Notes: generated from the letters alone by a model not told the origin. DNA of 16,866 nucleotides from Octopus sinensis (GCF_006345805.1 NW_021825064.1:1-16866), one strand, 5' to 3'; numbered from the stretch's first letter, positions 5,055 to 14,233 are shown. Numbers and translations are program-made.

Positions 5055-5113
5055 CAGATAGACATACAGACAGACAGATAGATAGACAGATATTCAGACT
5101 GATATATAGACAA

Positions 5114-5194
<81 letters not shown>
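5055..5194 (+). repeat. (GATA/GACA)n microsatellite
   Basis: Direct reading. Confidence 0.97.
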
Positions 5195-5195
<1 letters not shown>

Positions 5196-6526
5196 TTATT
5201 AGTCACGAAGTGCCGAACACAGAGGGAAGAATACAAATTAGAATTTTCGTTTTCGAATTCAATTAATGGTGGAAAGAAGAAAAAGATTTTCTTTTTATAA
5301 CGTGTGAACAGCGAAATAACAGAAAAGTCATTGTTAACAATAAGCGTTCCCAAAAGATAGGATTCATTAGATTTATCCGTGGAAAGAAAAACCTAAGAAA
5401 AAGAACCGCGGTAACCTCGGAAATGAACAGGAAAAACACTAACGTGAGCCAGGTGCTCTTTCTCTCGGTGTTATAGGATCATGCTCAAGGTGGTTTCGTC
5501 ATTTACGCTTAGCATGCTTGCCACATTCACCCACCTTTTATTGAACTTGTTATTAGACAAAACCTCACGCTCTATTTTCACCTTCCTCTTCAACTGATAC
5601 TTGAAGAAGTTGATAAGAGATTTTCCAGAGTGGAAAGTGTTCGTTTCGAAACCTTTCGCATGAGTCCACCACATACATTCACATTCTTTCACCATAGCCA
5701 CTACTATAATGAAAACTGCCTTGCTTTCCCGGTTAAAGGAAGGTGACGCGGCAATATTCACGATAGACTCGGCCAACAACTGAATTCGTCCGACACGTGA
5801 CAGCAGCCGTTCGACGTAAGCCCACAGGTGCGCGCAGAATGGTTTCTTCGCTCTGACGGCATCTCGAACAAGTTGGACCAGTGTCTCTTGAACCGCACCT
5901 GTAGAGCTTATCCCGTATGGTTAATGCTTCCCGGAAGCACGGCCAGGGATCTCTGGAAATTGTCCATAGGTCCCGGCCCGAAAATAACCATGAAGAGGTG
6001 AGCCAGTTATTCCTCGTAAACGGTCAGGGTCACCCCCACCAAGAACGTCATAACACCTCCCCTCCACTAATCTTCTATAGAACGAATTCGAGGAATTGAA
6101 GTAGGACGAGCTTGATCCCTGACGGTAGAGTTGCTCGAAAGCAAGGCGGCACTCGCCCAGCCTCACTCTCTCTTTGATCCACGATTGCGAGAAAGCGCGT
6201 CTCACAAATGGCGACCACAACTGTTCACCGTCGTCTACGAAACGCTGGAGATGTCGCAGTCTCAGCACATATCTGTGCATTATTATCCACGTCGTGCGAA
6301 GCCCTCCATTTAGCAGATATTGGCAGTAAGTGGATCGCCTGACCATCGGAACTCTTCCCTTTTACAAAAGGCGGAATAGTATGCATTTCAGTTTGATGGC
6401 AGGATCGGGACAACGCACTACGGTCAAATGGTCAGTTGGTAATAGATCACGGACGCGTTATACGTATTTATCAACTTAGCCCGACCTTTTAGATATACCT
6501 TCCTCTCAGCCCATTTCTCTCTTCCC
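5195..6526 (-). mobile_element. Tx1/L1-group LINE copy A, ~1.33 kb 3' portion, degenerate
   Basis: ORFs 5471-5779 and 5921-6346 align with the ORF2 C-terminus of copy C (AESIVNI..PSFNRE..FFKYQLKRK..). It ends in AATAAA next to (TATC)n. Confidence 0.92.
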
Positions 6527-6572
6527 ATAGATAAATAGATAGATAGGTAGGTCGATAGATAAATAGATAGAT

Positions 6573-6609
<37 letters not shown>

Positions 6610-6646
6610 TAGGTAAATAGGTAGCTAGCTAGCTAGCTAGATAGAT
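6527..6646 (+). repeat. Mixed (GATA/GACA/GCTA)n microsatellite between copies A and B
   Basis: Direct reading. Confidence 0.95.
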
Positions 6647-11779: not shown

Positions 11780-11836
11780 TTACGAAAATTGTGTTTTACA
11801 CACTACATTAGAAGAGACAAGAGGCAAGAGGGGAGG

Positions 11837-12696
11837 TCACTTACTCATTTTAAAAGTTTCATTTTTTTCTTCTACTTTTGTAGTGTCTTTGAGGAGGTGT
11901 TTGTATAGTTTTTTCGACAGGTATCGTTGAAACCCGCCTACCGCATTCGGAAATATTGTTTTCAGTATGTGGTGTTGTGCTTGTGTTATGTGTAAAATTC
12001 CGATGTGTTTCGGTGGTGTGGTGTGCGGATGATTGTTTGTCTTAAAGTCTTCTTCACATATGTCCGTGTTGGATGTGATGTAGTCCATTAATTCTTTATT
12101 GTCTGTGTCTATTGCAGTTAGTTGTGTGTGTGGTTTTACGGGTTCATTGCTTTTTTGATTGTTTAGGGGGATGTTGTCCTGAGTTAGATATCTCCCTGCT
12201 TTACTTCCTTGTTTGGTGGATTTTCTGGATCTTTTCCTTTACCCTGTGGCTATTTGCCATTCCGTCGAAATTTCGTCGTCCAACGTATCAGTATGGGGTA
12301 GAGGCAAGCATTTGCATTACTATGTATGCTTGTAGAAATTGTTGATGTTTTTGTGCGGTATTTGTGTTGTTGTGTGTTAGGGGTAGCATTTGTCTTCTCG
12401 TCACTGTTTTCTGTCTTTTTAATTGTCGTCCTCTGTGTGGATGTTGGTCTATTTTTTGTTGATTCGACATGTTGAATTGGTTGTGACGTCAATGGTGATT
12501 GTGTTGGTACTGTTTCTTTTCTTGGTGATGTTGTTGGGGTTTGTTTGCTGGTTTGTTGTTTTTCTTGGCATTGTTCCATAATTGAGTGTGTTGGTGTTGG
12601 TGTTGGTGTTGGTGTTGGTGTTGGCAACAAGGGTTTTTCTATTTGTTTTCTGATTTGTTCTTTCTTGTTTTTTCTGTACCAGAGCGCACTTGGCAA
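11837..12696 (-). pseudogene. Probable frameshifted low-complexity C-terminal part of ORF1
   Basis: Same-strand ORFs 12250-12696 (P/T/K/Q-rich), 12288-12470 and 11837-12088 cover most of the gap and end 57 bp before the ORF2 ATG. Confidence 0.55.
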
Positions 12697-13723
12697 TTAA
12701 ATGTTCGGGGCTGCCACAGTTGTAGCATCTAGGCTTTTTGCCTTCTGCTACAACATATAGGCATTGCCCATTTTCCAAGTGGATCTTATCCGGTAGGCTC
12801 TCGATAGAGGCCCCCTCAATCTGTATGGTCACCACTATTGTCTTCCCACCCCAAATGTCGCCAAGGTACACGGCGGTTTCCAAAATGTTGATATTTTTTA
12901 AAGGGTAACAGATTGCCCCTGTTATCCATTTGTTAGGAATCTCGGGAGGTACATTTTTAATAGTGATTCGACTCACTCTCTGGATTTTATAGTATGGGAC
13001 CATGATGATTTCATCATTTTCCAGAGACTCAGTAGAGTGAGCTTTTGCCACTTCCTGGTTAGGGAAGCGGACCGCTACTGTGTTAAACTGGAGACCCCAG
13101 TTTAAATATTCTTTTTCTTTCATTATGTTTTTTAAGCATTTTTCTACATCTGTTTTTGTAATCTGTTCATTTAGTTTTTTGTTTTTTCTTATAATTTTAT
13201 ATATAATTGTCTTATTTTCTATTTCTTGCTTTATGTGTTGAGGTGTATGTAGCACTAAATCTTGCCCTCTGTTTGTGAAGAGAGATATTGTTTCTAAAAG
13301 TTCTTCGTTCGTGAAATGTATAATCTGTTTCTTCTGACGCAGAGTGTCAGCGAAATTTGTTGGTGCTGTTAATTCTGTTATATTAACATCTTCACTATTA
13401 GATAGTTCATTTTTATTGTTGTTCTTGTTGTTGCTGTTGTTTTTGTCAATAGTTTTCGTGTGAGTTTTATTTTTATCATTCATGTTGGTGGCGGTGGTGG
13501 TGGTGGTGGTGGTGGAGGTGGAGGTGGAGGTGGTGGTGGTAGCAGTAGTAGTCTCGTGGTTGCTGTTGTTAGTGGTGGTGGTGGTGGTGGTGGTGACAGG
13601 GCTGTTACCCACGTCGTGGTTGCAGTGAGCGTTCATTCCAACGATATTCATGTTTGCACTTTGCGTGCATGAGTTCTTTTTTTCTTCTCCTAGCGTTTCC
13701 AAACTAGGAAAATGCTGGTCCAT
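12449..13723 (-). CDS. ORF1p, gag-like nucleic-acid-binding protein (RRM-like region + CCHC zinc knuckle)
   Basis: 424 aa. Contains RITIKNVPPEIPNKWI, LPDKIHLENG.CLYVVAEGKKPR and CYNCGSPEHLIAKC (Cx2Cx4Hx4C), as in Tx1-type ORF1. It probably continued through frameshifts to the stop at 11837. Confidence 0.85.
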   Translation of the reverse strand: MDQHFPSLETLGEEKKNSCTQSANMNIVGMNAHCNHDVGNSPVTTTTTTTTNNSNHETTTATTTTSTSTSTTTTTTTATNMNDKNKTHTKTIDKNNSNNKNNNKNELSNSEDVNITELTAPTNFADTLRQKKQIIHFTNEELLETISLFTNRGQDLVLHTPQHIKQEIENKTIIYKIIRKNKKLNEQITKTDVEKCLKNIMKEKEYLNWGLQFNTVAVRFPNQEVAKAHSTESLENDEIIMVPYYKIQRVSRITIKNVPPEIPNKWITGAICYPLKNINILETAVYLGDIWGGKTIVVTIQIEGASIESLPDKIHLENGQCLYVVAEGKKPRCYNCGSPEHLIAKCALVQKKQERTNQKTNRKTLVANTNTNTNTNTNTLNYGTMPRKTTNQQTNPNNITKKRNSTNTITIDVTTNSTCRINKK

Positions 13724-13961
13724 AAAGGAACGCGACCAGCGTTCTACAATAAACTTTCTCTACATTTTCTAATGTCGAGAAGAAAATTACAGAAATGAAA
13801 TGGGGTTGAAACTGCCCCTAGGGGCGAATTCCTCACTTGGAAAAGCACTCAAACGAAAGTTGGGTGCCTTACACACCTTATTTGCAAAAATTTACACAAA
13901 ATATGGGCTATAAATAGTTAAAATAAACGATTACCTTCGGAGCCGAAGTGACAGCACGTCC

Positions 13962-14018
<57 letters not shown>

Positions 14019-14150
14019 AGATAGATAGATAGAATGATAGATAGATAGATAGATAGATAGATATAGATAGATAGATAGATAGATAGATATATGGATAGAT
14101 AGATAGACAGATAGATAGATAGCAGACAGATTGACAGATACATAGATAGC

Positions 14151-14233
<83 letters not shown>

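Follow-up and report, generated by a model that had tools for sequence, protein, structure and literature searches.

Tx1-like LINEs of Octopus sinensis and their probable targeting of (TATC)n microsatellites

Several long interspersed nuclear elements (LINEs) reside in microsatellites. Kibi and Koshi are teleost Tx1-clade elements of the apurinic/apyrimidinic endonuclease-like (APE) type, and are found in (TC)n and (TTC)n, respectively (PMC4494074 and PMC3812793, in the portions that treat these elements). In crocodilians, Tx1-1_Crp and other Tx1 families are found in (TTCC)n/(TTTC)n and Tx1-Mar in Mariner-N4; the corresponding portion of that study uses the term target specific where >20% of flanks show the target (PMC4494074). 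Other LINEs of this kind, as summarized in parts of two papers, are Waldo (ACAY), Mino (AC) and Dong (TAA) (PMC3812793), and Togen, which targets (TG)n (PMC4640811). The present report concerns a 16,866 nt stretch of DNA from Octopus sinensis (GCF_006345805.1 NW_021825064.1:1-16866), termed the window, in which three LINE copies, A, B and C, all lie on the minus strand with GATA tracts between and around them. Together with related copies in the 2.72 Gb genome that was searched, they very probably represent targeted insertion into (TATC)n.

As with Kibi and Koshi in the published portions cited, the octopus lineage is of APE type and is inserted into a microsatellite. It differs in its target, (TATC)n, and so is not Kibi or Koshi by target, and also in its cephalopod host, its thousands of copies and its several coexisting lineages. 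Thus, it represents a Kibi/Koshi-like mode with a different target. Waldo, Mino, Dong and Togen, as far as the cited parts describe them, share the same safe-haven strategy, but belong to other clades and have other targets, none of them GATA/TATC.

A tree of 145 homologous segments shows at least four lineages: C, D, a young group E, and an old, long-branched group that holds A and B. The C family contributes 82 copies to the tree, with a median identity of 97.5%, and the D family 20 copies with a median identity of 96.5%; D is 84% identical to C. The genome has 199 exact copies of the terminal 23-mer of C and 6,383 of the terminal 28-mer of D, both being lower bounds on the number of 3′ ends as only exact matches were counted. 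Individual genomic copies are labelled L with a number. An initial sequence-only reading of the window had proposed a single Tx1-like family inserting into (TATC)n, represented by three same-strand copies in GATA tracts. The three minus-strand copies, the tract at every end, the L1/Tx1-type character, the single orientation and the head-to-tail stacking all stand, but the single family does not, as the tree places A and B in the old lineage, apart from C.

The evidence for targeting comes from 5′-truncated copies. The first 45 of the 6,383 exact D tails, as listed on contig C1, were taken as the sample; two that border assembly gaps were left out, as were three full-length copies, each of which has upstream TATC. 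A copy was scored as adjoining a tract if at least three TATC units occurred within 40 nt upstream of its 5′ junction. Among script-resolved truncated copies, which range from ~100 nt to 5.3 kb, 31/39 satisfy this rule, and opposite-strand GATA is found in 0/39. After hand correction of L242 and L254 (one misplaced boundary, and one long truncated copy added), 33/40 truncated copies adjoin same-strand (TATC)n. Three of the remainder are at degenerate four-base tracts, and the genuine exceptions comprise two copies with unique flanks, one in an ATT/ATC repeat and one with a 5′ inversion. By comparison, 100 of 39,812 background 40-nt windows (0.25%, from 20 arbitrary 10-kb stretches) hold three or more TATC, and the presence of a tract at every element end in the window is therefore far above chance. 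The tabulation of flanks and strand, as the sequence-only reading had proposed for copies throughout the genome, shows a genome-wide preference that is strong in D and partial in C and the old lineage; phase is variable.

An abundant short interspersed nuclear element (SINE)-like repeat, found at window positions 14751-14985 inside an (AGGT)n tract, served as a control. It has 27 full copies in 60 loci; the 25 inspected have unique flanks, and 0/25 have a TATC tract at the 5′ end. The LINE 5′ end enters GATA, as it does here, also in contigs of two further public runs (X3, X18). These findings bear on whether copies merely accumulate passively, by surviving or collapsing in repeat-rich regions, or reflect an assembly artefact. 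Some near-identical tandem or segmental duplicates do exist (L161, 99% identical; L027-L029), but the junctions are base-precise, strand-specific and distributed over many chromosome-scale contigs, the co-resident SINE lacks such flanks, and the X3 and X18 contigs repeat the pattern, which makes this explanation highly improbable.

Target-site duplications (TSDs) address the order of events. In a strict test, a stretch with at least five non-TATC bases had to be repeated just after the 3′ junction and just before the 5′ junction; 6/53 truncated copies show this, vs 1/2,746 mismatched pairs. The TSDs are 11 to ~70 nt in length. As these six copies carry duplications of tract variants, the repeat predates the insertion. 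In L261 and L250 the element end is followed only by TAT before the duplicated target begins, and the downstream repeat is thus not a fixed, copied tail. L246 and L260 have TSDs of ~65-80 nt, and in L246 the variant motif is also present twice upstream; TSDs of L1 are typically shorter than this.

These data also bear on a possibility raised in the sequence-only reading itself, that the repeat is only an element-encoded 3′ tail. For D this is rejected by the 33/40 upstream tracts together with the TSDs. The broader form of the argument holds that there is no targeting, and that TATC represents an encoded tail plus a 5′ leader which expand into microsatellites after random insertion. The 5′ leader is indeed element-encoded by the evidence given below, and in many old copies TATC is limited to 1-2 units at the 3′ end, with no units upstream, perhaps the ancestral state of the lineage. 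Nevertheless, random insertion does not account for tracts at 33/40 differing truncation points, for tract variants duplicated on both sides, or for insertion directly behind the tails of other families, and has very little probability.

Targeted insertion is also reflected in the stacking of copies. Full-length C is found directly behind a sister tail in 27/72 cases (26 D, 1 E), scattered across the C tree, and the repeat between C and the sister tail is sometimes just 10-26 nt. Among 100 listed D tails, 14/99 neighbours are within 6.5 kb, vs 1.7 expected and a maximum of 8 in 5,000 simulations; 13/14 of these close neighbours are on the same strand. Pure (TATC)6 runs start at 61,764 places in the genome, a figure in which interrupted tracts are counted more than once, and D tails alone amount to about a tenth of this number. 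The rate at which C is found behind sister tails may simply equal the share of tracts that are LINE tails. L219 and L220 are arrays of three/four copies from C, D and E, separated by TATC, and some of their truncation points are near-identical.

The proportion of flanks in tracts can be compared with that in the crocodilian Tx1 families, in the portion of the study that describes them. Both show a tetranucleotide preference, and values above the 20% figure are found in C (6/15), D (33/40) and the old lineage (~6/25). The octopus repeat unit is different, and its target tracts are often tails of sister families.

Several results weigh against targeting, or limit its strictness. The C sample consists of the first 71 of the 199 listed ends, of which 53 retain the 5′ end and 18 do not; with a tandem duplicate and two recombinants dropped, 15 independent copies are left. 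Just the six of these given above satisfy the rule, and a seventh adjoins 2 units of a D tail. The old-lineage proportion (a hand tally of truncated copies) is low as well, and 8/21 copies of mixed age conform. Seven C copies without TATC were checked for a displaced 5′ part, and none was found within ~8-10 kb upstream; these seven do not appear to be elements split by a nearby insertion. No duplication was found at TATC-less C copies, where erosion and off-target insertion are not separated; later deletion is plausible. A looser TSD test performs no better than the null (28/126 vs 24/178). Distant D neighbours are also on the same strand in 59/85 pairs, and part of the D strand agreement is therefore regional. 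Finally, the nick site, the leader and the RNA 3′ end discussed below are all deduced from sequence. The specificity for (TATC)n is thus a strong preference, and is not absolute.

In the window, the copies, tracts and element parts are arranged as follows.

5056..5195, GATA/TATC tract, the 3′ flank of copy A
5196..6526, minus strand, copy A: 1.33 kb, 5′-truncated, decayed, of the old sister lineage, with the last ~360 ORF2 codons and the 3′ untranslated region (UTR)
6513..6526, minus strand, 14-nt non-family stretch at the 5′ junction of A; it resembles the next 14 nt and is common to B only
6527..6646, degenerate GATA tract separating the 3′ end of B from the 5′ end of A
6647..7902, minus strand, copy B: 1.26 kb, 5′-truncated, an old tandem duplicate of the insertion of A
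7889..7902, minus strand, 14-nt junction stretch of B, the same as in A
7903..8017, GATA tract separating the 3′ end of C from the 5′ end of B, likely the target that copy C entered
8018..13961, minus strand, copy C: L1/Tx1-type LINE, 5.94 kb and full length, from a young family, open reading frames (ORFs) broken by frameshifts
8022..8027, minus strand, AATAAA signal of copy C, 4 nt ahead of the TATC run, no poly(A)
8338..11779, minus strand, ORF2 remains of C, with several frameshifts and a 23-nt tandem duplication at 8811-8856
from ~11776, ~9570-10350 and ~8680-8820, minus strand, ORF2 domains of C: APE endonuclease, reverse transcriptase (RT) and zf-RVT, respectively
12449..13759, minus strand, ORF1 of C, 436 aa stop-to-stop, one CCHC zinc knuckle
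13962..13980 (approximate), minus strand, putative element-encoded TATC-like 5′ leader of C, ~8-20 nt, placed from clade-specific variants and copy L110
13962..14220 (to 14260 when delimited more widely), GATA tract, the 5′ flank of copy C

All six ends of A, B and C adjoin a GATA tract. The 5′ junctions of the three copies all read TCTAT/G, the slash marking the junction, and the 3′ ends consist of AATAAA plus 0-4 nt followed by TATC without poly(A), much as had been described from the window alone. A and B align only to the last 1.4 kb of C, with 69% identity, and are 81% identical to each other.

A and B represent one old insertion, later duplicated, by comparison of their sequences. Both carry the 14-nt stretch between tract and family sequence, which has no counterpart in other copies that span this position. 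A search with the A/B junction pattern, allowing up to two mismatches, gives exactly two matches in the genome, A and B themselves, and the two are sisters in the tree with a support of 0.92. Because the junction is unique to them and because of their sister placement, they are counted as one event, and the window holds two insertion events and not three. This is what the sequence-only reading had anticipated in the case that A and B were duplicates. That A and B might belong to a non-autonomous family whose copies all begin at one fixed 5′ end was considered and rejected, as the junction occurs just twice genome-wide. Flanking direct repeats would permit unequal crossover and hence tandem duplication, a process that would account for the A/B pair; tandem duplicates are also seen at L161 and L219.

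For full-length C copies, 30 5′ ends were fetched among 40 scored, with the window copy and a small number of likely duplicates included; 30/30 are preceded by same-strand TATC, and 30/30 of the fetched 3′ ends pass from AATAAA plus 4 nt straight into TATC, with no poly(A). Overall, upstream TATC is found in 69/72 full-length C copies. The bases before the 30 5′ ends are CTAC (15), CTAT (9), CGAC (4), CTGT (1) and GTAC (1). Sequence variants (TATTGAC, CTGTCTAT, CCATCTAC) occur in the 8-12 nt that precede the apparent start, and as these variants follow the 5′ UTR tree of the 72 copies, the repeat units beside full-length 5′ ends are inherited with the element as an encoded leader. L110 has a duplicated tract variant on each side, followed upstream by ~18 extra repeat bases, which gives a rough leader length. 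In the window copy the leader cannot be told apart from the flanking tract. As the leader is itself encoded, full-length ends are unable to prove targeting.

The leader also changes the reading of junction phase. The TCTAT/G junction of C is one leader variant, with CTAC the commonest, and CTAT may arise partly from CpG decay. At truncated junctions the tract ends are in all four phases, most commonly after TATCT, with a microhomology of 0-2 nt in seven cleanly resolved cases. Thus, the phase shared by the three window junctions is real, but it is general neither in C 5′ ends nor in truncated D, and the encoded leader variants together with the varying truncated junctions rule out a fixed cut phase. 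Nor does phase provide evidence for an endonuclease cut site as first supposed, as the repeat units at full-length ends are element-encoded and A and B are a single event.

C copies are mostly full length (53/71) and those of the sister family D mostly truncated (3 full length among 45), and both start with a TATC-like leader. The idea that the leader causes full-length insertion is weakened by this comparison. L206/L221 is a chimeric full-length element flanked by TATC, in which the 5′ part shares 73-77% identity with C and the 3′ end is of C type; its sequence suggests an exchange between sister families, by recombination or by template switching.

It is established that L1-group elements use target-primed reverse transcription. 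Insertion here is preferential, in one orientation and into existing (TATC)n, likely by way of an APE nick on the GATA strand and pairing with UAU(C) of the RNA. The first nick must be on the GATA strand because of the insertion orientation. Transcripts would start a few repeat units upstream, and the RNA may be cleaved inside read-through UAUC units, as AATAAA precedes the repeat by just 0-5 nt, with poly(A) bypassed. The APE endonuclease would then nick the GATA strand of an existing (TATC)n tract, freeing a DNA end that would anneal to UAU(C) at the 3′ terminus of the RNA and prime reverse transcription. UAUC units at both RNA ends may guide first-strand priming and 5′ joining, and each insertion would duplicate a piece of the tract, which would provide new targets. 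In SART1/TRAS1 and R1Bm, a target-complementary RNA end aids priming; these are analogous to the priming proposed here, but are R1-clade elements with telomeric/rDNA targets.

The endonuclease itself likely recognizes the repeat. The segment before SYLDR in the endonuclease, which we take to correspond to the hairpin loop that contacts DNA in L1, is conserved from C and D to the old copies; relatives at 38-43% identity have a different sequence here. This conservation fits a shared nuclease specificity, without proving it. Alternatively, targeting could be led by pairing: the endonuclease may be relaxed, or breaks in the repeat may be used, with priming efficient only at DNA ends that pair with the UAUC end of the RNA. 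Such a process predicts the same orientation bias (opposite strand 0/39), and the wide range of TSD lengths (11 to ~70 nt), the insertion of L250 in an ATT/ATC repeat and a loop before SYLDR equal in length to that of human L1 are in keeping with it. On the other hand, some 3′ junctions (L261, L250, L245) match the target by TAT only, which is short for an enrichment of ~300-fold, and known microsatellite-targeting APE elements are thought to be mainly nuclease-specific, according to parts of PMC4494074 and PMC3812793. Pairing-led targeting thus appears unlikely, though it deserves consideration, as nuclease specificity and pairing-driven selection cannot be told apart by sequence alone.

With respect to coding capacity, the natural copy L105 has an uninterrupted ORF2 of 1,146 aa, whose APE and RT catalytic motifs align to human L1 ORF2p. 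Its domains are Exo_endo_phos (1e-15), RVT_1 (2e-30) and zf-RVT (3e-6), and the same domains are found in the window pieces. L105 ORF2 matches human L1 ORF2p over residues 9-874 with 187 bits, and R2 proteins with at most 77 bits. The elements have two ORFs, with an ORF2 that contains APE, RT and a C-terminal cysteine-rich domain and is nearer to L1 than to R2; 5′ truncation, TSDs and occasional 5′ inversion (L115, L263) are also as in the L1 group. In the three ORF1 sequences examined, zf-CCHC scores slightly under the curated cut-off and no Transposase_22 was found. ORF1 look-alikes are ZCCHC3-type and CCHC clusters, a lead only, and a ZCCHC3-type RNA-binding region is suggested in ORF1 of a sister copy. 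Tx1 elements are expected to have an ORF1 of the RRM plus CCHC type and not of Transposase_22 type, with which these ORF1 sequences agree, and the CCHC knuckle is consistent with Tx1 as described in part of PMC5203782. Membership in the Tx1 clade is probable by these sequence features.

The closest named protein is from Argonauta hians, with 68% identity across the RT region. Relatives of ORF2 form a large clade in other assemblies (P0002-P0009, P0070-P0139), of ~1,150 aa and ~50% RT identity. Among 33 matches, in a search separate from that with human L1, the sole one with a transposon name is a Tx1-annotated coral protein, at 319 bits. In 80 loci of metagenome relatives, mostly 22-37% identical, no TATC/GATA run was found; many of these contigs end at the element ends and are hence uninformative.

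In an Octopus vulgaris annotation of 2026, the main text counts 421 insertions for 13 L1-Tx1 families with recent activity (PMC13282606), and these may include families of the C/D/E type. The words GATA and target do not occur in that main text. Surveys of bivalves and gastropods mention Tx1 without targets in the parts concerned (PMC10294476, PMC11203168). No GATA/TATC-targeting LINE was found in the literature searched. The families may be catalogued, and their target recorded, in Repbase/Dfam, in subscription papers or in the supplements of PMC4494074.

Other repeats are present in the window. A further LINE is represented at positions 2007-2744 by a decayed 3′ fragment, which has (AAT)n tracts on either side and CCHC and restriction-like-endonuclease-like frames; presumably it is of the Dong-R4 type, which targets (TAA)n. 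A repeat of ~500 nt at 770-1788 and 3542-4080 consists of two inverted copies, 96-97% identical and 26 nt apart, and of a third copy, all bounded by (AAT)n. At 4430-4560, a short stretch resembles by eye the 3′ end of another retroelement and lies beside an (AAT)n tract. Rfam gives only weak, sub-threshold hairpin matches at 1221-1338 and no ribozyme in the window.

The octopus elements extend the small set of microsatellite-targeting LINEs by a new target, (TATC)n, and apparently by a new group of hosts. With at least 6,383 D tails vs about 61,800 pure (TATC)6 starts, the scale ties the abundance of GATA repeats to retrotransposition, and GATA microsatellite markers in this genome should be used with caution, as they are often at LINE ends. 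Sister lineages that differ in age and apparent specificity make the origin of a target preference testable in one genome, and the natural intact ORF2 of L105 permits a direct nicking test. More tentatively, and perhaps somewhat doubtfully, this may be an undescribed (TATC)n-targeting Tx1 lineage with the repeat at both RNA ends that built its own niche, in which weakly specific old members seeded tracts and the younger C, D and E gained strong specificity and insert into each other's tails. If so, these LINEs would be a main source as well as a main consumer of octopod GATA microsatellites, and their APE nuclease would have a new specificity.

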